This document shows positions 9,420-58,945 of a stretch of 64,000 bases of DNA, one piece after another. A model generated the notes under the pieces. The model was not told the origin of the DNA. It saw nothing but the letters and a program-made list of their open reading frames with translations, and did no database searches. The translations under genes were made by a program, and so were the position numbers. Source of the DNA: Patescibacteria group bacterium (lineage in GTDB: Bacteria > Patescibacteriota > Kazan-3B-28 > UBA10110). The stretch covers positions 201,832 through 265,831 of the forward strand of contig JBAZXK010000002.1 in the NCBI GenBank assembly GCA_041659905.1, given 5' to 3'. Positions within the stretch are counted from its first letter, which is position 1, and each line of letters begins with the position of its first letter.

Positions 9420-9545
9420 TTGGTAGGGTTGATAAGGCAGATGTGAAGGGGTGTTAACATGGGTTATCAACCCCAAACTGCGCTCTGGGAGAGAATTTAA
9501 CTGGTAAGGCTGATATGGCATATCAACCCTAGTTTTGGATTGAAT
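9420..9545. repeat. Short dispersed motifs AGGGTTGATAAGGCA / TGCCATATCAACCCT and GTTAACATGGG, same family as the 13.9-14.4 kb array
   Basis: Direct reading: agggttgataaggca...gtgttaacatgggttatcaacccc...ggctgatatggcatatcaaccct. Confidence 0.5.
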
Positions 9546-9857: not shown

Positions 9858-11402
9858 ATGGAAAATTGGTTAACGATTTTACTCTGGGTAGTCGGGGGAG
9901 GTTTGCTTGGCTATTATATTCGGCTCGCTTTAGCGCAACGCAAAGTCAGCCATGCCGAAGCCGAAGCCGATAAAATTCTCAAAAAGGCTCAGGAAAAACT
10001 GGAAGACGCCGGCAAACGCGAGAAAGAAATTGTTATTACCGCCAAAGAAGAAGCTTCCAAAATTCGCGAACGCGTCGAAAAGGAAGAACAACAACGGCGA
10101 CTAGAGCTTTTAGAGTTAGAAAAACGCCTGCGCCAGAAGGATGAAACTTTAGACAAACGGGCGATGGAACTCGATAAGAAACAAGAGGCGGTTTTTGATC
10201 AGGATAAAGAGATTAAAGAGGTTAAAGAAGAAATCATCAAAATCCGCGAGCAGCAAGAAAGTAAGCTGTCGGCCATTGCTAAGCTAACCAAAGAGGAGGC
10301 TAAAGAATTATTACTAAAACGGACGGAAAAAGACGCCAAAGACGATATCGTCAAACTCATGCACGATATCGAAAGCCAAGCCCGAGAGGAAGCTGATTCT
10401 AAGGCCAGAGATATTATTGCCACTGCCATTCAGCGCTATGCCGGTGAAACGGCCGTCGAATCGACTACCTATGCAGTGCCGATCCCCTCTGACGAAATGA
10501 AAGGGCGGATTATCGGTAAAGAAGGCCGCAATATTCAGGCTTTCGAACGGGCTACTGGTGTCGATCTGATCGTTGACGATACACCGGACGTGGTAGTAAT
10601 TTCCTGCTTTGATCCGGTGCGTCGGGCGATTGCTAAAAATGCTTTAGAAAAGCTAGTTTCCGATGGCCGCATTCAACCGGCTCGGATTGAAGAAGTGGTC
10701 GAGAGAGCTCAAAAAGAGATCGCAGCTGAGATTAAGAAAGCCGGCGAAGAAGCGGTGATGGAATTGGGCTTAACTGGTCTGCCGATAGATCTAGTCAAGA
10801 TCATCGGTCGGCTGAAGTATCGCACCAGTTACGGACAGAATATTTTGCATCATTCAGTAGAATCAGGGCATCTGGCAGGACTCATGGCAGCTCAGATCGG
10901 AGCTGATGTCCGTTTGTCTAAACTGGCGGCTTTAATGCACGATGTTGGTAAAGCCTTGGATCATGAATTCGAAGGTGGCCATGCTGAACTTTCCCGAGAT
11001 ATCGCCATCAAATACGGTTTACCGAAAGAGGTTATTCAGGCAGTCGAGGTGTCTCACGAGGGATCCGGCGGGCCAAAAAGCGCTATCGATTTCATCTCTA
11101 TGGCAGCCGATGCCATTTCGTCCTCCCGTCCCGGAGCGCGTCGCGAAAGCTTGGAACAATTCATTAAACGCTTGAGTGATCTGGAAAATATTGCCAAAAG
11201 TTTCCCCGGGATTGATCGGGTTTATGCCATTCAGGCCGGACGCGAAGTCCGGGTGATGGTGATCCCGGAAGAAGTAGACGATCTGGGTATTATTAAGATG
11301 GCTAAGGAGATGGCGCAAAAGATTGAAAAAGAAATGACCTATCCAGGAACGGTGCGGGTTAATATTATCCGGGAGCTTCGGGCTGAAGAAACTGCTAAAT
11401 AA
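9858..11402 (+). CDS. rny: Ribonuclease Y
   Basis: N-terminal TM helix, coiled-coil, KH domain (GRIIGKEGRNIQAFE) and HD domain (LMHDVGKALDHE). Confidence 0.85.
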   Translation: MENWLTILLWVVGGGLLGYYIRLALAQRKVSHAEAEADKILKKAQEKLEDAGKREKEIVITAKEEASKIRERVEKEEQQRRLELLELEKRLRQKDETLDKRAMELDKKQEAVFDQDKEIKEVKEEIIKIREQQESKLSAIAKLTKEEAKELLLKRTEKDAKDDIVKLMHDIESQAREEADSKARDIIATAIQRYAGETAVESTTYAVPIPSDEMKGRIIGKEGRNIQAFERATGVDLIVDDTPDVVVISCFDPVRRAIAKNALEKLVSDGRIQPARIEEVVERAQKEIAAEIKKAGEEAVMELGLTGLPIDLVKIIGRLKYRTSYGQNILHHSVESGHLAGLMAAQIGADVRLSKLAALMHDVGKALDHEFEGGHAELSRDIAIKYGLPKEVIQAVEVSHEGSGGPKSAIDFISMAADAISSSRPGARRESLEQFIKRLSDLENIAKSFPGIDRVYAIQAGREVRVMVIPEEVDDLGIIKMAKEMAQKIEKEMTYPGTVRVNIIRELRAEETAK

Positions 11403-13287: not shown

Positions 13288-13322
13288 AAATTTATCCGCT
13301 ATCCCCTATTTTACCGTCCTAG

Positions 13323-13357
13323 ATTGTCGCCGAACAAGGGCGGCAATTTGATTTATT
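13323..13357 (+). terminator. Hairpin + T-run after ndk
   Basis: attgtcgccgaacaagggcggcaatttgatttatt: 9-bp stem with one mismatch, followed by a T-rich tract. Confidence 0.35.
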
Positions 13358-13722
13358 GACTTTAACAAGAGTGTATGTCAAAATCTAACTGCGGTATTTT
13401 TTTGGTTATCTAATAATCAAATTACCCAGGGCAAACGCCGAAAACTCGGGTTAACTGAGTTTTGACCCAACATTGCGTTTCCCGCTTATAGCTTTTGCTC
13501 CTTAACACATTAATCTTGTATACAACAGCTGCTAGGATTGATATCTTAGCACCAAGCTGTTTTATAAGGGAGAGACCTGGGAGCCAGTTTAGTTTGCCGC
13601 AGTATATGCGCCGAACTTGGAGTAGATTGTCGATTCTCATATGGTTAAGCTGTTCAGGTCAAAGACATGCCTCGGTCTCTCCTTTTTTCTTTTCATCTCT
13701 AGTCCTTACATTCAATCCGTAC

Positions 13723-13753
13723 CCCCCTGGCTTTAAAAGTCAGGGGGTTTTAT
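13723..13753 (+). terminator. Orphan rho-independent terminator (no CDS upstream)
   Basis: cccccctggctttaaaagtcagggggttttatt: 7-bp GC stem then TTTTATT. Confidence 0.4.
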
Positions 13754-13893
13754 TATGTCGAAGTCAGCCATATCGAAAATAAATTCTCGACCAAAGAATT
13801 ATTATATAAACAGTTATTGTTTACCAAAGCGGATCAAGGATAGTCAGTTTCTCAAAAACTGGTTTTTTAGGCTATTTCGACAGTGGATAACCA

Positions 13894-14420
13894 CCTCACA
13901 TGGGGTGCTAACCCCACATTAAAACACAGCTCTAGTGGCGGAGTTTTGGGTTGACATGCCATGCTAACCCCCATTTCAAAAATTTTTCTACACCTAAGAG
14001 GCTAAAGATATTTAGACAGTTGTCTAAATATAGGGTTGATAGGGCATGTGAGGTACCTAGCACCCCATGTTAACCCTAACGGCCTTTGGGTTGGTAGGCC
14101 ATGTTAACCCAAAGAGCTAAAATTGCTTAACTACTATTTATATATAATATATAGAGCTATAGCGCAAAATAGGCGATTGGTATGTCAGTAAATATTGACC
14201 GGGGTTAACAACCCATGTTAACCTCAAAGTGGTAGGGTTAACATGCCATGTGAGGTACCTAGCACCCCATGTTAACCCCAAAGGGCATTTTTTGGATCAT
14301 TCATAGGAGAAGAGTGTTGGGGTTGGTAACCCATGTTAACAAGTTAGCACCCCATGTTAACCTCAAGGCAAAAATGAGCCATAGTAAATAACTTTTAACC
14401 TAACATGCCATGCTAACCCT
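13894..14420. repeat. Array of >=8 copies of CCATGTTAACC / GGTTAACATGG (variant CATGCTAACCC), plus twice-repeated catgtgaggtacctagcaccccatgttaacc
   Basis: Read directly at ~13894, 13955, 14063, 14098, 14201, 14235, 14246, 14321, 14344 and 14401. Both orientations occur. Confidence 0.6.
14008..14031. promoter_or_regulatory. 24-bp perfect palindrome ATATTTAGACA-gt-TGTCTAAATAT (candidate operator)
   Basis: 11-bp arms are exact reverse complements with a 2-bp spacer. Confidence 0.5.
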
Positions 14421-15021: not shown

Positions 15022-15286
15022 TCCTCCCCTTACCGAGGGGAGGTTAGGGGAGGTGGGAGTATATTCCATCCCTTTGATTTTGTAAAATCAACAAACTCAT
15101 TCTTTCGCTACCACTTTGCTCGTCTTTGGTGGTAGCACCGAAAGGACGGCCAAGTCGTCGGGATGATGAAAGGGCTAAATTTCTAGGTATTTTTCTGGCC
15201 AAACTCGGCCGATAGCCTATCGGCCTCAAACATGGCCTCACCCTTAGAAATTTAACTCCTATCCTTATCATCCCTCCTCCAATGGC
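15022..15286. repeat. Repeated structured element, copy A (candidate ncRNA, ~265 nt)
   Basis: Shares the motifs GAGGGGAGGTTAGGGGAGGTGGGAGTATATTCC, CCTTTGATTTTGTAAAATCA, ATGAAAgGGC...AAACTCG and TCCTCCAATG with copy B at 54916-55180. Hairpins show compensatory substitutions between copies. Confidence 0.5.
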
Positions 15287-15389
15287 TTAAGGGAAAACAC
15301 TCCAGCTCCAATGCTCGGTCAGGAGAAAAAACGCTCAAGTTCCAAGGTCTGGTTATGGGGAAAGAAGGAGGGAATGAGTAACGTTTGAA

Positions 15390-15422
15390 TAAAAAACCAG
15401 GCGCCGGGTAGGCGCCTTTGTT
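15390..15422 (-). terminator. Rho-independent terminator for the minus-strand gene 15448-15930
   Basis: On the minus strand: ggcgcctacccggcgcctggttttttatt. Confidence 0.5.
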
Positions 15423-16075: not shown

Positions 16076-17515
16076 ATGGCGAAGCAGTTAAAATTATTCG
16101 GGAAACCAACTAAGAAGACGAAATCTAGCGTTAAAACTAAAGGTCGCCCCGATGTCCCGAACCCAAGGGTTTCGGGAAGCGGGGCCAATGTCGCAAAGCG
16201 ACATTGGCATTGGACGGATTATTTTGTGTCCAGTCCACTTAAAGTTACTCCTAAGAAACAGCGGAAAGTTTCCGTGGTTTTTGTGATGATGAGCGGGGGA
16301 GTCGATTCTTCGGCCACGGCCTATCTCCTAAAAGAGCAAGGATTTGAGGTGGTGGGAGTGTATATGAAAAATTGGTCTTTCCCGATCAAGCGGATTCAGG
16401 AGTGTCCGCTGTACCAGGATTATAAAGATATGGTCAAGGTGTGCAAATTCCTCAAGATTCCTTATCAGGTCTGGAGTTTTGAAAAGGATTACCGCAAACG
16501 GGTAATTGATCCGTTTTTTGTGGGTTATCAGGAGGGATTAACTCCTAATCCGGATGTGATGTGCAACACCGAGATTAAATTTGATGATTTCCTGAAAAAA
16601 GCGTTAAAGATGGGGGCGGATTATATCGCCACTGGCCACCATATCAGGAGTCGTTGTGCCGATCCCAAGTCTTTTAAACTCCTTTCTTCTGTCATCCCGA
16701 CAACTTCTTCTGTCATCCCGACAACTTCTTCTGTCATCCCGACCGGAGTGGAGGGATCTAAATCTGGCGTGAGAGATTCCTCGATTTCACTCGGAATGAC
16801 AAAAAGTAAAGCTCGGAATGACGGCAACAACAAAATCTGTAAGGATTACCAGCTTTTAAAGGGCAAAGACCCCATTAAAGATCAAACCTATTTTGTTTAC
16901 CGGCTTACCCAGGAACAGCTCAAGAAATGTATCTTCCCGGTAGGGGATTATGTCAAAACTGATCTTCGGGCCATGGCGAAAAAGGTAAATTTGCCGACTG
17001 CCGAGCGGCGCGATAGCCAAGGCATCTGTTTTATTGGGAATATTAATGTGAAATCCTTTCTGAAGACTAAACTACCCGAAAAAGAAGGGGATATCGTGAC
17101 TAAAGAGGGCAAAAAGATCGGTAAACATGAAGGGGCTTGGTTTTATACGATTGGACAAAGGAGGATTGAAGGCCTGTCTGGCATGGTGAAGCCAATGTAT
17201 GTCATCGGCAAAAACATGAAGAAAAACCAGGTGATTGTAGGTGATGACAAAGATACCTACAATAAAATCGCTCGGCTATCCAACTTCCATTTAATTAATA
17301 ATAAAACCGTTAAACCGATCGATTTGATGGGGATTATCTTAACTGCTAAATCCCGCTATACGCCGGAAACCAGTCGAGGCAAACTGGGTAAAGACAAAAA
17401 GGGTTACTTTTTTGAATTTGTGAAGCCGGAACGAGCCATCACCCCCGGCCAATCCCTGGTTCTCTATAAAGGCGAAATTTGCCTGGGCGGCGGTATTATT
17501 ACTAGTGCTAGATAG
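16076..17515 (+). CDS. mnmA: tRNA 2-thiouridylase MnmA, with a Lys-rich N-terminal extension and a ~55-aa internal insertion
   Basis: VVFVMMSGGVDSS (PP-loop), TPNPDVMCN, ADYIATGHH, KDQTYFVY, DSQGICFIG. Start uncertain: alternative GTG near 16268 gives a canonical N-terminus. Confidence 0.8.
   Translation: MAKQLKLFGKPTKKTKSSVKTKGRPDVPNPRVSGSGANVAKRHWHWTDYFVSSPLKVTPKKQRKVSVVFVMMSGGVDSSATAYLLKEQGFEVVGVYMKNWSFPIKRIQECPLYQDYKDMVKVCKFLKIPYQVWSFEKDYRKRVIDPFFVGYQEGLTPNPDVMCNTEIKFDDFLKKALKMGADYIATGHHIRSRCADPKSFKLLSSVIPTTSSVIPTTSSVIPTGVEGSKSGVRDSSISLGMTKSKARNDGNNKICKDYQLLKGKDPIKDQTYFVYRLTQEQLKKCIFPVGDYVKTDLRAMAKKVNLPTAERRDSQGICFIGNINVKSFLKTKLPEKEGDIVTKEGKKIGKHEGAWFYTIGQRRIEGLSGMVKPMYVIGKNMKKNQVIVGDDKDTYNKIARLSNFHLINNKTVKPIDLMGIILTAKSRYTPETSRGKLGKDKKGYFFEFVKPERAITPGQSLVLYKGEICLGGGIITSAR
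16686..16800. repeat. 21-bp tandem x3 (cttctgtcatcccgacaactt) followed by a 68-bp palindromic element, all in-frame within mnmA
   Basis: Encodes SSVIPTTSSVIPTTSSVIPTGVEGSKSGVRDSSISLGMT. Element: gtcatcccgaccggagtggagggatct...agattcctcgatttcactcggaatgac. Confidence 0.65.
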
Positions 17516-18688: not shown

Positions 18689-18764
18689 TCCAGACTCGCT
18701 CTGCTCTAAAGCAGAGGTAGCGATTGCGCCGAGAAGGGTTAGGAAACTGGGGGAATTCCCGTTT

Positions 18765-18822
18765 GTCATTCCGACCGCAGTGGAGGAATCTCATGAGATC
18801 CTTCGACTCCGCTCAGGATGAC
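18765..18822. repeat. Palindromic element, copy 2
   Basis: gtcattccgaccgcagtggaggaatctcatgagatccttcgactccgctcaggatgac. Confidence 0.65.
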
Positions 18823-18914
18823 GGCGCAAGGAATACGCCGTCAGTTAATAATTTATCAGATATTAAAGAGCTTATTAAGTTAATAAGCAGTTATTTTTAT
18901 TAATAATTCTTTCT

Positions 18915-18972
18915 GTCATTCCGACCGTAGTGGAGGAATCTCATGAGATCCTTCGACTCCGCTCAGGATGAC
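18915..18972. repeat. Palindromic element, copy 3 (near-identical to copy 2)
   Basis: gtcattccgaccgtagtggaggaatctcatgagatccttcgactccgctcaggatgac. Ends 15 nt before the next CDS. Confidence 0.65.
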
Positions 18973-18986
18973 AGATGTAAGGTAAT

Positions 18987-20087: not shown

Positions 20088-20096
20088 CACTCGTTT

Positions 20097-20165
20097 GTCA
20101 TCCCGACCGTAGCGGAGGGATCTGAGGTTTTTACTGTTAGATTCCTCGACTTCGCTCGGAATGAC
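20097..20165. repeat. Palindromic element, copy 4
   Basis: gtcatcccgaccgtagcggagggatctgag...agattcctcgacttcgctcggaatgac. Confidence 0.65.
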
Positions 20166-20353
20166 ACTTCAACTTAACAATTTAACCGAATCTGCAGGTT
20201 TGGACCGAGAGCAATACACGCATAAAATTTCGCGTCAGCTCAGCTTACAGATGAACCTCTAGGCAGCTTGAAGGCATCAATTGAGCCTTTAAACGCCAGA
20301 GTCAAACTCCAAATAAAAGCACTTATTAATTAATTCGAAAGAACAAAATATAC

Positions 20354-31732: not shown

Positions 31733-31802
31733 GTCATCCTGAACTTCCCACTTCCGTCATCCTGAACTTCCCACTTCCGTCATCCTGAACTAGTTTCAGG
31801 AT
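31733..31802. repeat. 23-bp tandem (gtcatcctgaacttcccacttcc) x~2.6 ending in the palindrome atcctgaactagtttcaggat
   Basis: Read directly. Overlaps the 3' end of the GIY-YIG gene. Confidence 0.6.
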
Positions 31803-32080
31803 CTCCCGAAGAGGTCTTCCCACTTTGGGTTGTTACTCTCAATTAGATTAATCTTCCACTCCCGATGCCAACGCTTTAATTGCTTCTCTCTTTGAATAGC
31901 TTCAGCAATAGTTGGGTATTCTTCCGAGTAAACTAATTTATTGAGATTGTATTTTCTCGTGAAAGAATCTGCCTGGCTGATCAAGTGTTGTTCTGATCTT
32001 TTCATCAGTTGGCTAGTAACACCGATATACAAGATACCCTTTGGCTTATTGGTGAGGATATAAACATAACCTTTCTTCAT
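31796..32080 (-). CDS. Small GIY-YIG nuclease family protein (YhbQ-like)
   Basis: KGYVYILTNKPKGILYIGVTSQLMKRSEQH matches the GIY-YIG motif. Confidence 0.75.
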   Translation of the reverse strand: MKKGYVYILTNKPKGILYIGVTSQLMKRSEQHLISQADSFTRKYNLNKLVYSEEYPTIAEAIQREKQLKRWHREWKINLIESNNPKWEDLFGRS

Positions 32081-32095
32081 AACCCCATTATAGAG

Positions 32096-32236
32096 ATCCT
32101 GAAATAAATTCAGGATGACGAAAAGGAGATATCCTGAAATGTAGAGAAATAAATCCTGGACCCTCCTACACTGAAACTACGGACGGGCAGGCAAGTCAGG
32201 ATGACGAAGTTAGGGATACTTCGTCAGTTTAGGATG
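32096..32236. repeat. Palindromes of the same family upstream of the GIY-YIG gene
   Basis: atcctgaaataaattcaggatgac, and gtcaggatgacgaagttagggatacttcgtcagtttaggatg. Confidence 0.55.
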
Positions 32237-48081: not shown

Positions 48082-48548
48082 ATGAATCAATCAGAAGAAT
48101 ATCAAAAAGAAGTTTTAGTATTAGCTAAAAAAGCCTTCCGGAAAAAGAAATTCCGGTAGGTGCTATTGTGATAGATAAATCCGGACAAATTATCGGTAGG
48201 GGATATAATTTAGCCCACGCCAAAAAAGATGTTACCGAGCATGCCGAAATTAGAGCCCTCCGGCAGGCCTTCAAAAAGACGGGTGATTGGCGATTGGACG
48301 ATTGCCAGTTAATAGTTAATCTAGAACCATGCTTGATGTGTCTGGGCGCTATAGCTAATGCGCGTATCAAAGAAGTAAGTTATTTTTTAGCTGATCCCCA
48401 ATTCGGCTCGGTCGAAAGTCGCTTAACTAAAAAACAACTGACTAAACTATTTCCGAAACTGATCATAAAAAAGATAAACGACGCTGGAGAGACTAAGCAA
48501 TTATTACAAGATTTCTTTAAAGAATTACGTATTAAAATATATATTTAA
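48082..48548 (+). CDS. tadA: tRNA-specific adenosine deaminase TadA (N-terminus interrupted by a 1-nt frameshift near 48141-48152)
   Basis: HAEIRALRQA and NLEPCLMCLGAI (zinc-binding). Upstream ATG 48082 encodes MNQSEEYQKEVLVLAKKAFRKK, which continues as EIPVGAIVIDKSGQIIGRG only after a frame change. The track ORF starts at GTG 48168. Confidence 0.65.
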
Positions 48549-48713
48549 ATATATATTTTAATATTTAGTGATATGGGGAAAGCTAAAAAGCTGATGTGAT
48601 AGTTTTTACTGATTTGCGTAGAAAATAGCTCTGGCATTGACTTTTTCATTAGAAACCCGTACAATAAGCTGTTCTAATAGCACCTTATCTTATTGTGAGG
48701 GAGGTGATGGCCG

Positions 48714-49262
48714 ATGCAGGCCACTCCAATATTCTGGTATATTGTTGTGTATGCGTTTGGGTCAGGCCCGGTTGCTTCTAATGTTATTCTAGCCAATCTG
48801 GCAGCTGGTTGTTATAATTTTATAACAAACAAGGGCGACAGCGCACTTATCTTCACACAAAAGGAGATACCAGAGATCCCAGGGATCGATCCATCCCGAA
48901 TCCGCTATATTTCATTGAAGCCGAAGGCCCAACCGACATTAAAAATTGCGCACTGGATGATGAATGAAGTAATCCCATCAGCGCGCTTTCATGCCCATCC
49001 GGCTACCAAAATCATGGTGGTAGCAGCCACGCCGCATTTAGGGAGAGCAAAAGGAGACACTGAATATGCGGTGTGGGAATCTGGATTGGATATCGATGTG
49101 AGGGTTTGGGAAGACATTGCGCAGATACCACCTCAGAAGTGGTACTGTAATGAGTCGAAACAGCCGCATACGCGTTCAGCATGGGCCTGGTGGCTTAGGG
49201 AGATACCCATCCTCATTATCCGAGCCATATCAATGCGATGGTACGCCTACAAAACGGGATGA
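48714..49262 (+). CDS. Hypothetical protein
   Basis: ORF only. Start uncertain. Confidence 0.25.
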   Translation: MQATPIFWYIVVYAFGSGPVASNVILANLAAGCYNFITNKGDSALIFTQKEIPEIPGIDPSRIRYISLKPKAQPTLKIAHWMMNEVIPSARFHAHPATKIMVVAATPHLGRAKGDTEYAVWESGLDIDVRVWEDIAQIPPQKWYCNESKQPHTRSAWAWWLREIPILIIRAISMRWYAYKTG

Positions 49263-49349
49263 TTTCTGGCTGCTCATCAAATCTTTTCGAAAAGATCTGT
49301 TTCCAAACAGGTCTTTTTTCATATCAGATTGCCAGTATAATAAGTTTGT

Positions 49350-49440
49350 GGAAGCGTGGCCGAGCGGTTGAAGGCGGCGCTCTCGAAAAGCGTTATACCG
49401 GTTTCCGGTATCAGAGGTTCGAATCCTCTCGCTTCCGCCA
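49350..49440 (+). tRNA. tRNA-Ser (CGA)
   Basis: ggaagcgtggccgagcggttgaaggcggcgctctcgaaaagcgtt + long variable arm ataccggtttccggtat + agaggttcgaatcctctcgcttccgcca. Confidence 0.85.
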
Positions 49441-49493
49441 AAATGACGTTCTCGCAGTTATGTTTGACCGAGCGCAAAAACTAAAGTACACCT

Positions 49494-50945
49494 ATGCTGT
49501 TTAATTCCATTGATTTTGCCATATTCTTACCAATAGTTTTTGTTCTCTATTGGTTTGTTACTAATAAAAATCTCCGGCTTCAGAATATCTTAATCGTCAG
49601 CGCTAGTTTTCTGTTTTATGGCTGGTGGGATTGGCGTTTTCTGCTACTACTGATCGGCAGTATTATTGTTGATTATTTGGTTGGCTTAGGTTTAGCCAAT
49701 CAGGAAAATTCCGCCAAACGCAAATTATTTTTATGGATAAGTATCATCGCCCAAATTGGTCTTCTGGGATTTTTCAAATATTATAACTTTTTCCTGGCTA
49801 GCTTCATCGACGCCTTCACTTTCTTCGGCGCAGACATCTCGGCCAATTCCCTAAACATAATTCTTCCGGTCGGAATCAGTTTTTATACCTTTCAGACGCT
49901 GAGTTACACGATCGATGTTTATAGGAGAAAATTTGCACCTACCCGGGACTTTATTGCCTTTGCTGCATTTGTTAGTTTCTTCCCTCAGTTGGTGGCCGGG
50001 CCGATTGAGCGAGCTGCTAATTTATTACCCCAGTTTTATCGCAGCAGAACCTTCGATTATGCCAAGGCGACCGATGGTCTAAGGCAGATGTTATGGGGAT
50101 TGTTCAAAAAAATTGTCATCGCCGATAACTGTGCTGTCTATGCCGATATGATCTTCAATAATTCTGCCAATTATTCAGGTAGCACTTTGGTCTTGGGAGC
50201 GCTGTTTTTCACCTTCCAAATTTATGGTGATTTTTCCGGGTATTCCGATATAGCTATCGGTACAGCCAGACTATTCGGATTTGATTTGATGAGAAATTTT
50301 GCATTTCCTTATTTCTCGAGAGATATTGCCGAATTCTGGCGGCGTTGGCACATCTCACTCTCGACTTGGTTCAGAGATTATGTCTATATCCCACTGGGCG
50401 GGAGCAGAGGCAGTACCTGGACAAAAGTGCGTAATATCCTGATTGTTTTTTTGGTCAGCGGGTTGTGGCACGGGGCCAACTGGACCTTTGTGGTTTGGGG
50501 AGCGTTGCATGCCACCTATTTTTTACCCTTGTTATTGTTGGGTAAAAACAGAGACCATCTCGATACAGTCGCCCCAGGGAAACTGCTGCCTTCATTAAAG
50601 GAGGTTTGGGCCGTAAGCGCTACCTTTTGGTTAACTGTGTTTGCCTGGATATTTTTCCGTGCCCAAAATATGCACCATGCTCTGAGTTTTATCTCTCAGA
50701 TATTTTCCAAATCACTCCTGACTGTTCCAGATTTCCCTATGAGACTCAAGGCCCTCGTTGTCTTAGTGTTGGTGGTGGGGTTTCTGATAGTGGAATGGGT
50801 AGGGAGAGGGCAGCAGCATGCCCTGGCTAATTTAGGAGGGAGTTTATCGCGACCGCTCCGGTGGAGCGTCTATTTGTTTATTATTCTGATCATTATTATG
50901 TATATGGCAGCGCTGGGAAGCCCCTTTATTTATTTTCAATTTTAA
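49494..50945 (+). CDS. MBOAT-family membrane O-acyltransferase (AlgI/DltB-like)
   Basis: FYTFQTLSYTIDVYRRK and WRRWHISLSTWFRDYVYIPLGGSRG (catalytic His region). Confidence 0.8.
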   Translation: MLFNSIDFAIFLPIVFVLYWFVTNKNLRLQNILIVSASFLFYGWWDWRFLLLLIGSIIVDYLVGLGLANQENSAKRKLFLWISIIAQIGLLGFFKYYNFFLASFIDAFTFFGADISANSLNIILPVGISFYTFQTLSYTIDVYRRKFAPTRDFIAFAAFVSFFPQLVAGPIERAANLLPQFYRSRTFDYAKATDGLRQMLWGLFKKIVIADNCAVYADMIFNNSANYSGSTLVLGALFFTFQIYGDFSGYSDIAIGTARLFGFDLMRNFAFPYFSRDIAEFWRRWHISLSTWFRDYVYIPLGGSRGSTWTKVRNILIVFLVSGLWHGANWTFVVWGALHATYFLPLLLLGKNRDHLDTVAPGKLLPSLKEVWAVSATFWLTVFAWIFFRAQNMHHALSFISQIFSKSLLTVPDFPMRLKALVVLVLVVGFLIVEWVGRGQQHALANLGGSLSRPLRWSVYLFIILIIIMYMAALGSPFIYFQF

Positions 50946-50953
50946 ATAAAACC

Positions 50954-51925
50954 GTGAAAAAATTTCTCAAAGATTTAGCGTTATTTATCGGCCTCACTCT
51001 GCTGATTTATCCAGTTTTAGTGATAGTTTGGGGTGAGCTAATTCCGGGACGCTTAATTTTCAATTTAAATTATCCTCGCGGGGGCTATGGGCATACTTAT
51101 TCTCGGATTCACGAAATTGATCAGTATCCCAATGTTGACGTGCTGTTTGTCGGATCATCGCATGTTTATCGGGGGTTTGATACCCGCATATTTGCTGCCC
51201 ACCGGATCACTTCATTTAACCTGGGTTCCAGCTTGCAAACACCCATCCAAACTAAACTATTACTGGAAAGATATTTGGACATTTTTAACCCCAAACTGAT
51301 TATTTATGAGGTGTGTCATGACAGTTTTTCTTCCGATGGGGTGGAGTCGTCTTTAGATATAATTGCGAATGATCGGATAGGTTGGGACACTTGGCAGATG
51401 GTGGGGGACACGTTGAACATAAAAACCATTAATGCGCTTATTTTTGGATTGTATAAACAACAATTTAGCTCTAATGCGAATTTTATAGAACCAGCCACAA
51501 AGAACGGAGACACTTACATCTCTGGCGGTTATGTCGAGAAAACATCAGCCTACTATCAGCCACAAAAACATACCCTCAGCTCGTGGGTATTAAATAGTAA
51601 ACAAACTAAAACCTTCCGCCAAACTGTTAATATGATAAACGAGCGCGAGATAAAGTTGTTAGTAGTCCAAGCTCCCGTGACCAAGATTTTATTTGATTCG
51701 TATGCGAATAATAACGAGATTGATGCCTGGTTTAAGGAGTTGGCGCCATATGTCAATTTCAATAATTATTCTCAACTACAGCTATCTGATACCCAACACT
51801 TTTATGATGATCAGCATTTAAACCAGATTGGAGTAGAATTATTTAATAATCAACTGATAGATTATTTATTCAGCCATGCGTTGGTAAATCAAGAGCTTCG
51901 ATATAGTTTCGTGGATATGTTTTAA
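50954..51925 (+). CDS. Membrane-anchored SGNH-like hydrolase/acyltransferase partner of MBOAT (AlgX/AlgJ/DltD-like role, inferred)
   Basis: GTG start giving MKKFLKDLALFIGLTLLIY (TM). LFVGSSHVYRGFD (Ser block). FYDDQHLNQIG (Asp-His block). Confidence 0.45.
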   Translation: MKKFLKDLALFIGLTLLIYPVLVIVWGELIPGRLIFNLNYPRGGYGHTYSRIHEIDQYPNVDVLFVGSSHVYRGFDTRIFAAHRITSFNLGSSLQTPIQTKLLLERYLDIFNPKLIIYEVCHDSFSSDGVESSLDIIANDRIGWDTWQMVGDTLNIKTINALIFGLYKQQFSSNANFIEPATKNGDTYISGGYVEKTSAYYQPQKHTLSSWVLNSKQTKTFRQTVNMINEREIKLLVVQAPVTKILFDSYANNNEIDAWFKELAPYVNFNNYSQLQLSDTQHFYDDQHLNQIGVELFNNQLIDYLFSHALVNQELRYSFVDMF

Positions 51926-51932
51926 TAAAGGT

Positions 51933-52208
51933 ATGAACCATTCAACATCACAGGGACCAGTTTGTCAGAGTTGCGGCATGCCGCTTCGTAGATCGGCAGA
52001 TTTTGGCACTAACGAAGACGGCAGCAAAAATGAGGATTATTGCCGTTATTGTTGGCAAACAGGCGCTTTTACCGAACCGAAGATCACCATGGATCAGATG
52101 GTAGATAAAGTTGCCCAGATGATGATGGAAATGCAAGGAATTTCCGAAGATCATGCCATTGAAATGTGTGTGCATTTTATCCCAAAACTCTCCCGCTGGC
52201 GGAAATAA
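51933..52208 (+). CDS. Zinc-ribbon domain protein
   Basis: CQSCGMP...CRYCW four-Cys arrangement. Confidence 0.5.
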   Translation: MNHSTSQGPVCQSCGMPLRRSADFGTNEDGSKNEDYCRYCWQTGAFTEPKITMDQMVDKVAQMMMEMQGISEDHAIEMCVHFIPKLSRWRK

Positions 52209-52265
52209 AAAAATACCCCAGGCTAAATACTGGGGCATTTTGTTTGTAAGAGAGGAAAATCAGAA

Positions 52266-52529
52266 TCAGGCGGCTGCGGTATTCTTCCCCTGTTTCTTCG
52301 GCGGCGGGAAGAGTTTTTCGCGGTCAATTTTAAGCGCTCGCGCGAGCTTCTCTTTAGTCAGTTCCATCGGTTCAGATAGCTGATTCTCCGCGAACGAGAT
52401 GGTCACCTGGCTCACGCCGCTAACCTTCGCCAGTTCCTTCTGAGTCATCAATCTTTTGACTCTGTAATCTCTCAGATAGTTCAATGTGCTCTCTTCCTTT
52501 GGCTGTCCAGTGTCGGTGGCGGACAGCAT
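52266..52529 (-). CDS. XRE-family HTH transcriptional regulator
   Basis: LMTQKELAKVSGVSQVTISFAEN. Confidence 0.65.
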   Translation of the reverse strand: MLSATDTGQPKEESTLNYLRDYRVKRLMTQKELAKVSGVSQVTISFAENQLSEPMELTKEKLARALKIDREKLFPPPKKQGKNTAAA

Positions 52530-52610
52530 GGATTTAGTATACGAAAAATCAGCTCTCAGTCAAGTATTTTGCTATAATGAACCTAGTATATACTAGATAG
52601 AGATATTTTC

Positions 52611-53411
52611 ATGAAAATAGGGATTTTTGATTCCGGCTTAGGAGGCTTGTTGCTCACGCGCAGCCTGGTTGAAGCGTTACCGCAATACGATTACGTTTAT
52701 TTAGGCGATACTGCTCGAGTGCCTTATGGTAATCGTTCTCAGGCCGCTGTCTATGAATTTACCAAGCAAGCCGTTGAGTATTTATTTAACCAGGATTGCC
52801 AACTAATTATTTTAGCTTGCAATACTGCCTCAGCCGAGGCCTTGCGTAGAATCCAGCAAGAATATCTATCAAAACATTATCCAGAGCGGCGGGTATTGGG
52901 AGTGATTATCCCAACTGCCGAAGCGACTGTAGCCGAACATCCCCAAAAAATAGGCGTATTAGCGACTACCAGCACGGTTAATTCAGGTACATATCTTAGA
53001 GAACTGCATAAATTGGATTCGCATCTTCAGATTGTTCAACAAACCGCCCCCTTGCTGGTGCCTTTGATTGAAAATGATGGTTTACAATGGATCGAGCCTA
53101 TCTTAGAGAGCTACTTAAAGCCGCTGCGAGAAGCGCATATAAATACTCTGATTTTAGGCTGCACTCATTATCCTTTCATTAAGGATTTAATCAGACAAAA
53201 ACTGCCGACCGAGGTGAAAGTGTTATCGCAAGATGAAATTATTCCAGATAAACTGCGTGATTACCTGGAGCGTCATCCCGAAATTGATCAGTTGCTGGCC
53301 AAAGGCGGGGAGAGGAAATATCTAGTCACCGATTTAACCGAAAACATCCAAACTCTCGCCAAGGATTTATTTGGGTCAGAAATTATATTGGAACTAGTCA
53401 GTTTAGAATAA
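52611..53411 (+). CDS. murI: Glutamate racemase
   Basis: KIGIFDSGLGGLLL, YVYLGDTARVPYG, LACNTASAEAL, LGCTHYP. Confidence 0.85.
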   Translation: MKIGIFDSGLGGLLLTRSLVEALPQYDYVYLGDTARVPYGNRSQAAVYEFTKQAVEYLFNQDCQLIILACNTASAEALRRIQQEYLSKHYPERRVLGVIIPTAEATVAEHPQKIGVLATTSTVNSGTYLRELHKLDSHLQIVQQTAPLLVPLIENDGLQWIEPILESYLKPLREAHINTLILGCTHYPFIKDLIRQKLPTEVKVLSQDEIIPDKLRDYLERHPEIDQLLAKGGERKYLVTDLTENIQTLAKDLFGSEIILELVSLE

Positions 53412-53509
53412 ATCAGAATCGGTAGCCCATGCTATACCAAGGCTTCCGTCTTCGCATCAGCTGCGCCGGAATATGACGCAGGGCAGTCTTCGCTTTTATT
53501 TAATATATG

Positions 53510-53548
53510 GCGAAGCCAGGCGTAGCTTCCGTAAGGAAGCGAAGACTG
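53510..53548 (-). other. Conserved tRNA 3' trailer motif, copy 2 (downstream of tRNA-Gly on the minus strand)
   Basis: Minus strand reads cagtcttcgcttccttacggaagctacgcctggcttcgc. Hairpin gcttcc-ttac-ggaagc. Confidence 0.5.
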
Positions 53549-53620
53549 GAGCGGGATACCAGAATCGGACTGGCGCCTCAACCTTGGGAAGGTCGCATTC
53601 TACCACTAAACTAATCCCGC
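53547..53620 (-). tRNA. tRNA-Gly (CCC)
   Basis: Reverse complement gcgggattagtttagtggtagaatgcgaccttcccaaggttgaggcgccagtccgattctggtatcccgctcca. Loop TTCCCAA. Confidence 0.85.
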
Positions 53621-53739
53621 ACTATTTTCTGTCAGTTGCTCTAAATGCTAACTACTAAATGCTAGATGCTATCTCATTATACCAATTGCCCCAACTACTA
53701 GGTTGGAGAAATTAGTTTAATTGGTTATATTGGATAGAG

Positions 53740-53949
53740 TTACGTTGTAGCTCTTTTCCTTTTTGTCGCTGGTTTGGATAGTGTTTTCCGGCATTTGGCG
53801 CAGACCAGTGCAGATGTCCGACGGCCACCTGCGGTAGTCGTCATCTTAGCCAAATTAGGCTGCCAAGTATGCGGAGTATGCCGCTTGGAGTGGCTCACAT
53901 TGTGTCCGGTTTGCCGACCCTTGCCGCAGATAGTACAGATTCTACTCAT
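53740..53949 (-). CDS. rpmB: 50S ribosomal protein L28
   Basis: MSRICTICGKGRQTGHNVSHSKRHTPHTWQPNL matches the L28 N-terminal consensus. Confidence 0.8.
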   Translation of the reverse strand: MSRICTICGKGRQTGHNVSHSKRHTPHTWQPNLAKMTTTAGGRRTSALVCAKCRKTLSKPATKRKRATT

Positions 53950-54010
53950 AGTCTTTTCTTTAACTTTCCCCAGCTTATCAACTTATTCGATAATTCGCAA
54001 CTATAATTTT

Positions 54011-54670
54011 ATGCTGCTAGGCTCACTTTCTTTCACTACCATCGTGTTTGCTATCGTTGCCCTGATCATTGCTATCACGGTCCACGAATTTTCCCATGCC
54101 CTGATTGCTACTTGGATGGGTGATTCCACGGCTAAATTATCCGGCAGATTAACTCTTAATCCGTTAGCTCATCTCGATCCGGTTGGTTCAGTGGTGTTAT
54201 TGATCGCTGGATTTGGCTGGGGCAAGCCGGTGCCTTATAATCCGCATTTTGTCCGGCGGGGAGTCTGGGGCGAAGCTCTGATAGCTTTAGCCGGGCCGGT
54301 TAGTAATATTATAGTAGCCGCATTGTTTGCTTTGCCGGCCAGAATTTATTTTATGCAAACTGGGCAATTAGCCGATGGTAATATTTTTAAATTCTTGGCC
54401 ACGGTAGTGGTGCTCAATGTCGCTTTAGCCGCTTTTAATTTGTTTCCCATTCCGCCTTTGGATGGATCTAAAGTTTTGTATTTAATTTTAGATCGGCTGA
54501 CCTTCGGTAATGTAGATTGGTGGCCGAATTTTGAGCGCATGGGACCGATGATTTTATTGACTTTATTGTTCGCCGAGCGGCTATTCAGTATCAACATTAT
54601 TTTTAGGCTCCTAGACCCTATTATATTTTTGATCAACTGGATTACTGGCGCTAGTGGCCCAATTTTTTAG
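54011..54670 (+). CDS. Site-2 protease family (M50) membrane metalloprotease
   Basis: HEFSHAL (HExxH) and NLFPIPPLDG (LDG motif). The track ORF start 53774 was trimmed to ATG 54011 because the extension is antisense to rpmB. Confidence 0.7.
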   Translation: MLLGSLSFTTIVFAIVALIIAITVHEFSHALIATWMGDSTAKLSGRLTLNPLAHLDPVGSVVLLIAGFGWGKPVPYNPHFVRRGVWGEALIALAGPVSNIIVAALFALPARIYFMQTGQLADGNIFKFLATVVVLNVALAAFNLFPIPPLDGSKVLYLILDRLTFGNVDWWPNFERMGPMILLTLLFAERLFSINIIFRLLDPIIFLINWITGASGPIF

Positions 54671-54915
54671 ATGAGTTTTGCAGACGTAGTGTTGACGCTA
54701 TTTGTTTTGGCAATGGTAAAATAAAAGTACTCCATTGTATTCGCTAGCAATTTTGACCCAACAAAATTTCTGATACGGGATCCCTATATCGCCACGGTCC
54801 TATTAGCAAGTTGTGTCTCAAAAAATACGACTTCCTAATCGGGCTGTGGTTGCGGGAACCCACCTAGTTTACTAGGATCAGAATTTGTCTGGCGAATCTA
54901 TGGAGCTTTTAATAT

Positions 54916-55180
54916 TCCCCTCCTGCCGGAGGAGGGGTTAGGGGAGGTGGGAGTATATATTCCCCGAGCGGAGTCGAGGGGCTACCTTTGATTTTGTAAA
55001 ATCATTAAAACATTTTCTTGTTACCTTTCCAGAAAGGTAACACCAAAGCTTCAGGCAGTCGTCGAGGCTATGAAATGGCAAAAATCTCTGGGTGTTCTCG
55101 CTAAACTCGCCCTGCTGGGCTCACACATAGCTTCACCCACAGAGATTTTACTCATTTCATTACCGCCTCTCCTCCAATGC
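54916..55180. repeat. Repeated structured element, copy B (candidate ncRNA)
   Basis: See copy A. Hairpin cccctcctgccggaggagggg replaces cctccccttaccgaggggagg. Hairpin gttacctttccagaaaggtaac replaces gctaccactttgctcgtctttggtggtagc. Confidence 0.5.
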
Positions 55181-55259
55181 CCGTTTTAGAACTGCAAAAC
55201 CAGTGGCTCAATAATCCGTCGGATGGCGGATTGGGGCGCTGGAGCCGGAGGAGGGATTC

Positions 55260-55334
55260 GAACCCTCGACTTGCTGTTTACGAAACAGCTACTCTACCAC
55301 TGAGTTACTCCGGCATATTCATACACCTAAGATA
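55260..55334 (-). tRNA. tRNA-Thr (CGU)
   Basis: Reverse complement gccggagtaactcagtggtagagtagctgtttcgtaaacagcaagtcgagggttcgaatccctcctccggctcca. Loop TTCGTAA. Confidence 0.85.
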
Positions 55335-55402
55335 AATATACTATACCAATAAAAAAGAGCGCTACCTTACTCAAGGTAGCGCTATAATTGCAAACCTAAC
55401 AA

Positions 55403-56119
55403 TTACATTGCTCTTACAGTTTTTACAGGCAGATTGTTCCCCTTCGATGTGCGGATATTAGCCAATTTGGCTATTTCCTTGAGATCTGCGTCCCAGTCGA
55501 TGGGTCTGTTCAAGGTCGTACTGACTAAGTCAGCGGCCTGTTTAATGCACTGAAACAACTTGAACAGATCTACATTAGCGCCCTTCCAAATGTTTGCGAC
55601 GTCTTGGTTACCAATCGCCAATGTGGTTTTGGTGTTATTGCGTGAGCATGCCTCTGGCCAAAGCAATTCCACAAGACAATCACCATCTACTAAAGGAAAT
55701 TCTTCCTCCCGCCACTCTATGAATGGGTCTGTGGTGGGGGGATGAATGTGCACTTTTGCGTATCCACCCGTATTGACGCTGAATAACGCATCCCGGCTGA
55801 ATAACCTATCAATCACATTGTCCTTGGGTATCGATTGATAATTTAAGAAGTTATTCGTCGGAGGCAATATAGCAACGTTTATGAATTCGAGAACGGGACC
55901 ATACCAATCCCTAAAAATGTTTCCCCCGACGCGCGTATCACGGAAATGAATCGTTACTATTAATTCTCCCTCTCTCTCGGATACTTTTTCTTGCAGGCCG
56001 ATAAGAACTTGGCGATGTTTGTTGTACTCGTCCTGGTCAGGAATAGGATGAGCATATCGATCCAAAAACTTATCAATAGCTTTAACCCCATGATAAACCT
56101 TCGTTTTATTGCTAGGCAT
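55403..56119 (-). CDS. Hypothetical protein (238 aa) in a tRNA-flanked islet
   Basis: ORF only. No motif recognised. Confidence 0.4.
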   Translation of the reverse strand: MPSNKTKVYHGVKAIDKFLDRYAHPIPDQDEYNKHRQVLIGLQEKVSEREGELIVTIHFRDTRVGGNIFRDWYGPVLEFINVAILPPTNNFLNYQSIPKDNVIDRLFSRDALFSVNTGGYAKVHIHPPTTDPFIEWREEEFPLVDGDCLVELLWPEACSRNNTKTTLAIGNQDVANIWKGANVDLFKLFQCIKQAADLVSTTLNRPIDWDADLKEIAKLANIRTSKGNNLPVKTVRAM

Positions 56120-56334
56120 TTAAGCCTCCTTTACCTGTTCACAGGTAGGTACTTTCTAATGTTAATATGCGAGAACATCTTATAGTATCAAAAATAACCC
56201 CGCTGGCATAGACGAATACCCAAATTACAAACCGAAGCACGCAGTGCTGTTTGTAATTTGGAGAGGAGCAGTGACAAAGCGTTTATGACTTTTGCAAAAC
56301 TAGCAAAAGGATAAAGTGGAGTCCACTGCGACGA

Positions 56335-56411
56335 TGGTCGGGGTGCCGAGATTCGAACTCGGGACCTCACGCCCCCTAGACGTGCGCCATAAACCACTAG
56401 GCTACACCCCG
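56335..56411 (-). tRNA. tRNA-Pro, anticodon loop CUAGGGG (anticodon AGG if the stem is canonical; A34 is unusual)
   Basis: Reverse complement cggggtgtagcctagtggtttatggcgcacgtctagggggcgtgaggtcccgagttcgaatctcggcaccccgacca. Acceptor stem identical to tRNA-Pro(CGG). Confidence 0.75.
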
Positions 56412-56742: not shown

Positions 56743-57171
56743 ATGCAAAAATACATTCTTTATACAGATGGGGGGGCCAGAGGCAACCCGGGGCCGGCGG
56801 CGGCCGGGGTGGTGATTTATGATGCACACCTAAAAGAAGTTGATAAATTCGCCCATTATTTGGGAGTAGCCACGAATAATCAAGCGGAATATCAAGCGCT
56901 GATTTTAGGGCTGGGCCGGATTCAAAAACTGGTGGGCGATGCCCATAAAATTGCCGAAACTGCGGTGGAAGTATTTATGGACAGCGAATTGATCGTGAAA
57001 CAACTCTCCGGCGAATACCGCGTGAAAAACAAAGACCTAAAACCGTTAGTGGCCAAAGTCGAAGAATTGGTAGCTAAATTCGCGGCAGTCAAATTCCAAC
57101 ACATTTTCCGCGACAAAAACACTCTCGCCGATAAGTTATTGAATATCGAACTGGATAAACATACTGTCTAA
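56743..57171 (+). CDS. rnhA: Ribonuclease HI
   Basis: ILYTDGGARGNPGPAAAGVVIYD...ATNNQAEYQALILGL. Confidence 0.75.
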   Translation: MQKYILYTDGGARGNPGPAAAGVVIYDAHLKEVDKFAHYLGVATNNQAEYQALILGLGRIQKLVGDAHKIAETAVEVFMDSELIVKQLSGEYRVKNKDLKPLVAKVEELVAKFAAVKFQHIFRDKNTLADKLLNIELDKHTV

Positions 57172-58503: not shown

Positions 58504-58595
58504 GCTCGTTAGTTGTCATGCTGAATTTATTTCAGCATCTCCAGGGAGAGATCCTGAATCCGAACTTGGCCTTATGGACAGTCGGTCCAGGATGA
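58504..58595. repeat. Palindromes of the GTCATCC/GGATGAC family
   Basis: gtcatgctgaatttatttcagcat, and atcctgaatccgaacttggccttatggacagtcggtccaggatgac. Confidence 0.45.
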
Positions 58596-58726: not shown

Positions 58727-58775
58727 CCCCTCCTTTCCTCCCCTTATATTAAGGGGAGGTTGGGTGGGATGGTTT
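58727..58775. repeat. Partial third copy (5' hairpin + G-rich block) of the structured element
   Basis: cccctcctttcctccccttatattaaggggaggttgggtgggatgg. Confidence 0.4.
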
Positions 58776-58945
58776 TATGTTGACAAGGAGAGTGATTTGT
58801 AGTATAATAATATAATTACTTTATAGAGTTCCTTGCGGAAACAAACATCAAAATGGCTCCAAAAAGCAAAAAGAATAACCTCTTGTCGGTAACCCCTCGA
58901 CTACACTCGGGGAATAAAAAATTATACGATCCTGGACAAGCCAGG

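Follow-up and report, generated by a model that had tools for sequence, protein, structure and literature searches.

A structured, non-coding element is present in two diverged copies, A (positions 15022–15286) and B (54916–55180), in the 64,000-nt stretch of a Patescibacteria group bacterium genome analyzed here (contig JBAZXK010000002.1 of assembly GCA_041659905.1; hereafter the window, to which all coordinates and plus/minus strands refer). The element belongs to a multi-copy family whose fold is conserved by compensatory changes and which has kept one locus over deep divergence. With moderate confidence, we regard A and B as paralogs within a previously undescribed family of genes for structured small RNAs (sRNAs), ∼230–330 nt long and found in one Patescibacteria lineage; the RNA is most likely transcribed from the minus strand and, as a weaker proposal, would act in trans by binding protein. 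Related loci that were fetched for comparison are denoted by L-numbers.

The repeat reported by the initial annotation is real. Copies A and B share 77% column identity over an alignment of ∼340 nt, and each of two exact blocks, the 23-mer GGTTAGGGGAGGTGGGAGTATAT and the 20-mer CCTTTGATTTTGTAAAATCA, is found once in A, once in B, and nowhere else in the window, where window shuffles lead one to expect 0.00 and 0.02 occurrences, respectively. A further block, CTCCTCCAATG, was matched at least twice in 33 of 100 window shuffles and is by itself too short for significance. Both of the hairpin pairs quoted in that annotation are present as described, and their differences keep pairing: the first reads cctcccc/ggggagg in A vs. 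cccctcc/ggagggg in B, and the second gctaccac..gtggtagc in A vs. gttaccttt..aaaggtaac in B. Whole-element folds of A and B beat those of shuffled sequence on both strands (z of −5.6 to −6.8), and the conserved unit runs beyond 15286, to ∼15355.

The proposal of a novel non-coding RNA family is supported by the silence of Rfam, by covarying homologs in relatives, and by the lack of a conserved open reading frame (ORF) on either strand; the element is not protein-coding. A search of the whole window against the Rfam 15 covariance models, which had been suggested as a check, returned only seven tRNAs at the gathering threshold. At E-values of up to 10, the regions of A and B gave noise over the element (≤20 bits against thresholds of 42–70), and there was no match over the element in the relatives L021, L033, and L034. 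RNase P (considered for an AAAGUCC-like run), SRP, and tmRNA were rejected on account of the element's multiple copies and the lack of an Rfam match, and the 6S model (RF00013) does not match the element itself, in agreement with the earlier failure to recognize any of these four families.

Conserved core and covariation

The conserved unit is a rod of 125–150 nt with a hairpin, Pb, and usually a second hairpin, Pa, together with 5′ half-units, and not the 265-nt block originally delimited. That block is composite, its 5′ hairpin and G-rich part being missing from most orthologous copies. The parts of A and B and the features beside them are as follows.

15143–15291, minus strand: rod domain of copy A (covariance-model match of 126.5 bits, E = 8e-31); long irregular hairpin closed by helix P1, with two tandem G·A/A·G loops at its base, on the RNA strand 5′-GCCAUUGGAGGAGGGAUGAU ... 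AUCAUCCCGACGACUUGGC-3′, and a GUUUGAG/CGAGUUUGG loop close to the apex
15292–15355, minus strand: two 5′ half-units, GAGCAUUGGAGCUGGAGUG and ACCUUGGAACUUGAGCG, upstream of rod A on the RNA strand (CCAATG at 15308, CCAAGG at 15342)
15100–15142, minus strand: linker of copy A (ACUUUCGG on the RNA strand) and hairpin Pb (15107–15136, GCTACCAC..GTGGTAGC)
15074–15091, minus strand: hairpin Pa of copy A, TTGATTT TGTA AAATCAA
15022–15064, minus strand: accessory module 1 of A; on the RNA strand C-rich AUAUACUCCCACCUCCCCUAA, then hairpin CCUCCCCUCGGUAAGGGGAGG, then AACUUAUUUA
55047–55186, minus strand: rod domain of copy B (covariance-model match of 131.4 bits, E = 4e-32)
55187–55239, minus strand: spacer from tRNA-Thr to rod B, on the same strand, with a small hairpin and one degenerate half-unit, UAUUGAGCCACUGG...UCUAAAAC
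54989–55046, minus strand: linker, Pb (55020–55041, GTTACCTTTC..GAAAGGTAAC), and Pa (54989–55004) of copy B
54959–54984, no strand: mini-repeat hairpin TTCCCCGAGCGGAGTCGAGGGG, inserted in B and missing in A (a gap in the A alignment)
54916–54958, minus strand: accessory module 1 of B, hairpin CCCCTCC TGCCGGA GGAGGGG and a G-rich/C-rich block
58727–58775, plus strand: copy C, a hairpin and G-rich mini-repeat akin to module 1 only; no model match
55240–55314, minus strand: tRNA-Thr beside B (Rfam)
58946–64000, plus strand: giant ORF, starting ∼170 nt past copy C

The invariant core consists of the rod, closed by P1, a U-rich linker, and Pb. A covariance model of 150 positions, built from eleven rods and covering the rod only, matched A and B and nothing else within the window. 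Across ∼293 kb of Patescibacteria DNA it recovered all seeds as well as non-seed copies at 35–115 bits (L004:4252, L024:2556, L027:5351, L007/8, L033, L034, L039, and L040), for a set of 19 non-redundant rods scoring 35–134 bits. The model-based search of relatives that the initial annotation had recommended thus yielded homologs, and these covary. Independent single-sequence folds of eleven, and later nineteen, homologs gave the same rod. In the model-guided alignment, two-sided changes were found in 34 of the 41 rod pairs (130 cells), and the rod covariation score was 0.377, compared with at most 0.148 when the structure was slid by 1–3 columns; none of 500 shuffles matched the observed score. 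Closing helix P1, for example, occurs as GGCCA/UGGCC, GGGCA/UGCCC, and GACCA/UGGUC. The suspected selection on base pairing is borne out by this covariation. By comparison, RNAalifold found almost no consensus in a raw MAFFT alignment of all subtypes, and since that alignment is misaligned, subfamily and model-guided alignments were needed.

Hairpin Pb is present in 19 of 19 copies, always in the same order relative to the rod, and its stems covary (GCUACCAC, GUUACCUUUC, GCCACUUUUC, GACACUCUUU, GUUACUUUCC, and others, each with its complement). Pa is more variable in sequence across relatives, with the hairpin kept in most (TGATTTTGTAAAATCA, GGTCGTTTTGTAAAACGACC, AGCTTTGAAAAGCT); it is swapped for another mini-repeat hairpin in L024 and L028. 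Within the rod the base is invariant and the tip tolerates insertions of up to ∼90 nt (L022, L004, and L034).

Most rods are preceded on the RNA strand by between one and three ∼34-nt half-units that follow the pattern SSCAUUGGAG-YYY-GAG-YG-U-rich-CCCUUAA, as seen also in L021, L022, L027, L033, L034, L011, L024, and L007. They copy the 5′ strand of a rod without its 3′ partner, often of another subtype than the full copy that follows; a third unit of A, CCUUGGAACUUGAGCG, resembles the 5′ strand of an L021-type rod. The half-units showed no consistent or common fold by themselves, and Tandem Repeats Finder detected no array, the units being too degenerate for it. Those at A may be either remnants or part of the transcript.

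Strand, loci, and rival explanations

The element was originally described on the plus strand. Folding energies, z-scores, mismatch classes, and tandem G·A loops point instead to a minus-strand RNA, which we consider probable at a confidence of about two in three. The folding energy of the rod was lower on the minus strand in 18 of 18 sequences, by ∼10 kcal/mol (−61.6 vs. −54.2 kcal/mol for rod A), and its z-score against dinucleotide shuffles was better on that strand in 14 of 15 (means of −4.9 vs. −3.85). Three subfamily alignments gave consensus energies of −45.3, −34.3, and −32.5 on the minus strand vs. −32.8, −27.8, and −26.4 on the plus strand, with a higher structure conservation index on the minus strand in two of the three. 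Disallowing G-U pairs makes the fold strand-symmetric, an A·C mismatch on the plus strand being G·U on the minus; in plus-strand terms, the resulting fold contained 7 A·C vs. 0 G·U isolated mismatches within helices and 46 A·C vs. 16 G·U mismatches flanking them.

The near-invariant plus-strand motifs CTCCAATG and AGTCG read CAUUGGAG and CGACU on the minus strand. At the base of the minus-strand rod, CAUUGGAG opposite CGACUG gives a UU bulge, a G-C pair, and tandem G·A/A·G pairs, and a second tandem G·A loop lies one or four base pairs further in. Both motifs are kept in 16 of the 19 copies, and the three most divergent carry a GAG/GGA purine loop instead. Tandem sheared G·A pairs are a classical RNA motif; on the plus strand the same invariant loops would be tandem U·C/C·U mismatches, which are not known to form a stable RNA motif. 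Also in favor of the minus strand, the terminator scan picks out module 1 of A on it, and the rod is G-rich on this strand, counter to the local GC skew.

Several observations weigh against a minus-strand RNA. There is no convincing conserved promoter upstream of the rod on that strand, and its 3′ end is heterogeneous, with a good terminator in only some copies. Such an RNA would run antiparallel to its neighbors in six of the seven loci with co-directional flanking genes and, in 17 of 19 copies, opposite to the local G-rich (presumed leading) strand. Whole-element z-scores are slightly better on the plus strand (−6.7 for A and −6.8 for B, vs. −5.7 and −5.6), and the structure derived from the plus fold, which is biased toward that strand, gives 48 G-U vs. 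21 A·C cells. The minus-derived structure gives 22 G-U vs. 33 A·C cells; because the answer follows the strand that supplied the structure, pair counting was not used as decisive. The only minus-strand match in a sigma-70 scan, TTTACA-17-TATACT inside Pa and module 1 of A, was treated as chance, since an insertion breaks the same match in B.

Scans of genomes and metagenomes with the two exact blocks located the element in Patescibacteria and “Saccharibacteria” metagenome-assembled genomes (L001, L004, and L007/8) and in the metagenome contigs L011 and L019. All of the fetched loci with a MerR homolog (55–77% identity) are syntenic, in the order NDK, a gap of 1.1–1.6 kb, MerR, a gap of 400–600 nt, and MnmA, and an element homolog lies downstream of MerR in all 10 distinct relatives examined, down to 55–56% MerR identity. 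A small minus-strand ORF may sit before MnmA in these loci; this neighboring ORF is not conserved, and the small ORFs upstream on the RNA strand include no conserved partner protein. The copy at the site-2 protease locus, orthologous to B, is kept in L034/L035 (79% protein identity) and missing from L033 (80%), the Kazan-group genome L036 (68%), and L037, and L024 and L027 hold extra copies in gaps where the window has no copy. Copy B starts 54 nt past tRNA-Thr on the same strand (RNA orientation), and the L033 copy also follows a tRNA.

In a pairwise identity matrix, rod subtypes do not track loci. Rod B shares 88% identity with the L022 copy at the MerR locus; rod A is 82% identical to the corresponding copy of L024 and only 35% to that of L027, which in turn is 80% identical to the L024 copy upstream of MerR. 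Turnover or replacement of copies is suggested by this lack of tracking together with the 5′-strand remnants before rods, and these observations fit old paralogs that were now and then replaced or converted at a small number of conserved slots; they are also the chief support for the mobile-element alternative considered below.

Some of the features that trouble a minus-strand RNA would favor the same RNA family being made from the plus strand, as a 3′-untranslated region (3′-UTR) or read-through product of the upstream gene (the MerR-like gene for A; a 6S-like RNA or the site-2 protease gene for B) ending at a bidirectional terminator at 15399–15417. Orientation would then agree with the neighbors in six of seven tandem-gene contexts and with the local GC skew, and the whole-element z-scores and the G-U excess of the plus-derived structure would both speak for it. 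Moreover, the element at copy A starts 7 nt past the stop codon of the MerR-like gene and in L022 and L030 overlaps that stop, leaving no room for a plus-strand promoter, which fits co-transcription with the MerR-like gene. On the other side, rod energy, z-score, and consensus energy all favor the minus strand, as do the strand-symmetric mismatch test and the nature of the invariant loops, and B has no plus-strand terminator ahead of the tRNA to which its transcript would be antisense. We regard a plus-strand 3′-UTR as unlikely.

The history of the copies bears on a different alternative, namely a MITE-, PATE-, or REP-like DNA element that is recombining, or mobile but non-autonomous, and whose hairpin would be selected for mobilization at the level of single-stranded DNA or an RNA intermediate. 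The family is multi-copy, its locations vary among close relatives (the extra copies of L024 and L027, the missing site-2 protease-locus copy of L033, L036, and L037), its half-units resemble what replaced copies of another subtype would leave behind, its subtypes are scattered over loci, it keeps a consistent orientation to the local GC skew, as do IS200/IS605-type elements, and the genome is rich in hairpin mini-repeats nested inside the element. The copies are nevertheless old and diverged (67–77% identity between A and B), with compensatory changes and no recent burst. The P1 strands form inverted repeats of 7–8 nt that close the rod only, Pb and Pa always lying outside, and neither direct duplications at the rod flanks nor the pattern of terminal inverted repeat plus target-site duplication was seen at rod ends. 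Rod and Pb always occur together in fixed order, the MerR slot is filled in every relative examined, down to 55% protein identity, and the element is conserved better than the neighboring ORF. The flanking genes that were checked include no transposase, integrase, or reverse transcriptase (Pfam; ∼64 kb of this genome), and scans of viral contigs with three element patterns gave one chance match (L009) and otherwise none. A mobile element thus seems to us quite improbable. Far less probable still is a small protein encoded by the 75-amino-acid minus-strand ORF of A (15044–15271), in spite of its apparently strong ribosome-binding site, the Shine-Dalgarno-like GGAGGAGGG. In B, translation from the corresponding start would stop after Met-Lys, and the longest ORF on the minus strand there (47 amino acids) lies in another frame and has only a C-terminal IYSHLP in common with that of A, in line with the earlier remark that the ORF is not conserved. 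No homolog of the 75-amino-acid ORF exists among 5.8 billion predicted proteins, nor did that search yield further copies of the element through spurious ORF calls; substitutions track pairing rather than codons, and what looks like a Shine-Dalgarno sequence is GGAGGAG, the conserved strand of the tandem G·A loops.

Proposed function and likeness to known RNAs

Under the favored interpretation of A and B as minus-strand sRNA genes, the RNA would begin at its 5′ end with one to three short unpaired half-units repeating CAUUGGAG-NNN-GAG, followed by the rod of 125–150 nt, with a 7-bp P1, a UU bulge, two tandem G·A/A·G loops at the base (5′-CA UU G GA G.. GA G-3′ facing 5′-C GA ..C GA C UG-3′), and a variable tip. 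The U-rich linker, Pb, and usually Pa would come next, and the 3′ end of some copies, A and B among them, would consist of a C-rich stretch and then a terminator-like hairpin. We propose that such sibling sRNAs act in trans by binding a protein, as scaffold or sponge, since basal purine-rich loops and repeated motifs usually serve as protein platforms; the conserved basal loops and the repeated UUGGAG motifs would make up the binding platform. Where module 1 is present, the unpaired CUCCCACCUCCCC ahead of the terminator complements Shine-Dalgarno sequences and could act as an antisense, anti-Shine-Dalgarno seed. Protein binding is a best guess from motif logic, held less firmly than the existence of the family, and this counts against the full proposal. 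So does the detail of the basal motif: G·A loops occur in 16 of 19 copies, yet the motif as predicted departs from a canonical kink-turn, in which a 3-nt bulge directly adjoins the G·A and A·G pairs and a Watson-Crick helix lies on the other side: its bulge is only 2 nt (UU), and one G-C pair stands between it and the G·A pairs.

The element would work most like rod-shaped protein-binding RNAs such as 6S, or motif-repeat sponge RNAs such as CsrB/RsmZ, although it is a member of neither group. With 6S RNA (RF00013) and other rod-like RNAs it shares a length of 150–200 nt, a single long irregular hairpin, structure kept more than sequence, housekeeping contexts, and possible action by protein binding. 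It differs in having no large central bubble, in being conserved at the base rather than the middle, and in being multi-copy with 5′ half-units and 3′ hairpins. Like CsrB/RsmZ, Qrr, and csRNAs, it exists as several diverged paralogs per genome, with some terminator-like 3′ ends, and carries a short GGA motif (AUUGGAG) two to four times per locus. The CsrA consensus is CA-N-GGA; the element has the spacing CA-UU-GGA, its motifs are not in hairpin loops, and the long covarying rod dominates. Kink-turns and tandem sheared G·A platforms (box C/D, the base of T-box stem I, L7Ae sites) resemble it in their conserved tandem G·A/A·G pairs beside a bulge at the foot of a long helix, with G-C flanks. 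Unlike those systems, the element lacks box C/D sequences, has neither a Nop nor an L7Ae gene in its vicinity, and is not followed by an aminoacyl-tRNA synthetase, and the Rfam T-box and snoRNA models gave no match to it.

Four further candidates were considered and rejected. TIGR arrays and the IS110 bridge RNA (PMC12045711) share with the element an occurrence in parasitic bacteria, tandem short units, and G·A-type box motifs. TIGR units, however, consist of 8–12-nt repeats with 9-nt spacers, in arrays of 5–15 units beside a Nop-domain protein (PMC12045711), and the element has one to three degenerate ∼34-nt units with neither a Nop-domain gene nor a recombinase. A type III antitoxin (ToxI-like) would call for tandem, nearly identical repeats of 34–48 nt just ahead of a ToxN/AbiQ-type toxin gene; Tandem Repeats Finder did not detect an array, and no gene follows on the RNA strand. 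A retron non-coding RNA would have a reverse transcriptase gene directly after it and a1/a2 repeats around msr and msd, whereas no reverse transcriptase lies beside any copy, and P1 encloses the rod only; the RVT_3/RNase_H match at 56743–57171 is an RNase H-type protein. Integron attC sites carry complementary boxes, R″ (RYYYAAC) and R′ (GTTRRRY), at their two ends. The CTCCAAT of the element resembles R″ and faces CAGTCG across an internal loop, not a complementary GTTRRRY.

Genomes of Patescibacteria (the candidate phyla radiation) are very small, and few regulatory RNAs are known from them. Despite such tiny genomes, this lineage retains at least two copies of a structured RNA of 230–330 nt, and an important function can be argued from the better conservation of the RNA than of the neighboring ORF and from the one locus kept across deep divergence. 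The family is a well-supported orphan in a poorly understood radiation, with unusual locus turnover, and its clean covarying structure with conserved purine-rich loops is suited to structure probing and pull-down. The swapping of subtypes between loci may also shed light on RNA-gene turnover in reduced genomes. A bolder and rather doubtful extension is that rods are exchangeable RNA-gene cassettes, with old subtypes competing for a few conserved intergenic slots and each replacement leaving a ∼34-nt 5′-strand remnant, and that the RNA forms the core of a Patescibacteria-specific ribonucleoprotein built on the tandem G·A platform. If true, it would mean a new kind of RNA-gene turnover, or a new ribonucleoprotein, in minimal-genome bacteria.

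Accessory modules and surroundings

The first ∼45 nt of the element as originally reported (the CCYCYCC..GGRGRGG hairpin and GGGGAGGTGGGAGTATAT) are found, among MerR-locus copies, only in A and L021. This module 1 is missing from the orthologous copies in L022, L024, L027, L028, and L030; the hairpin and G-rich block also occur without the core in L005 and L002 and downstream, not upstream, of the core in L007. Because it is mostly missing from orthologous copies and found elsewhere without the core, we treat it as an accessory module. On the minus strand, module 1 of A consists of a C-rich stretch, a hairpin, and a U-rich tail, and a terminator scan flagged 15043–15023. Copy C does have the hairpin (CCTCCCC..GGGGAGG) and the G-rich run ascribed to it, but as it lacks a model match it does not qualify as a partial copy of the RNA; a mini-repeat of the same type lies directly before ruvC in L019 (3898–3944).

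Hairpin mini-repeats of 25–60 nt are inserted in the loops or flanks of individual copies, including TTCCCCGAGC..TCGAGGGG (in B, missing in A), GTCATCCTGAA..TTCAGGATC, and CCTGCCTGCCGGYAGGCAGG; an inverted copy of the hairpin inserted in B, 90% complementary, is located at 58888–58916. Such accessory modules, copy C among them, resemble BOX, RUP, Correia, and REP/BIME elements in being short dispersed hairpins that combine as mosaics and insert into one another. The core of rod plus Pb differs from those elements in being longer, older, conserved in position, and covarying.

Mini-repeat families of this size were also seen elsewhere in the window (16684–16806, 18759–18975, 20091–20166, 31775–32123, 58515–58541, and 58888–58916). 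They include GTCATCCCGACCGnAGTGGAGGGATCT, GTCATCCTGAAnnTTCAGGATC, and TTCCCCGAGCGGAGTCGAGGGG, some in tandem or palindromic pairs, and the same families, which insert into loops of the RNA, were found in distant Patescibacteria contigs. A copy-C-type hairpin with G-rich CCCATCCTCCCCTTAGTAAGGGGAGGTGTAGGAGGGGAT lies between the rod half-units and the terminator of the convergent ORF at L021:11100–11170, L022:11090–11150, and L030:8880–8930; the RNA locus in these three relatives is therefore bracketed by inverted mini-repeat copies. The window has only a degenerate trace of the CCCATCCTCCCCTTAGTAAGGGGAGGTGTAGGAGGGGAT element, at ∼15350–15385.

The genomic context given in the initial annotation agrees with our analysis, with the MerR-like gene before A, tRNA-Thr beside B, and the giant ORF after C. 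Adjoining B, a sub-threshold 6S match of full model length was found at 54726–54910 on the plus strand (34.9 bits; gathering threshold 46.4), convergent with B and with the module 1 hairpin between them. In L034 a comparable match of 37.2 bits (10718–10901, plus strand) likewise follows the site-2 protease gene, and 54726–54910 is probably the real, divergent 6S gene of the lineage.

The gap between NDK and MerR (13288–14409 in the window) is gene-poor, measures 1.1–1.6 kb in all relatives, gave no Rfam match, and holds a rod copy in L024. In the window this gap, together with 9452–9476, carries a ∼24-nt motif, GGTTAACATGGGGTGCTAAC, and its partner in eight or more copies, some as long inverted pairs. 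The GGTTAACATGGGGTGCTAAC repeats might serve the MerR-like regulator as operator sites or constitute a further repeat family.

The giant ORF past copy C (58946–64000) encodes at least 1685 amino acids with a signal-peptide-like start and remains open to the end of the window; Big_5/CLIPPER giant proteins are encoded in the same neighborhood of L034, L036, and L037. Seven tRNA genes, single and on both strands, lie within ∼10 kb (46195–56411), among them a tRNA-Pro with the anticodon AGG, which is rare in bacteria.

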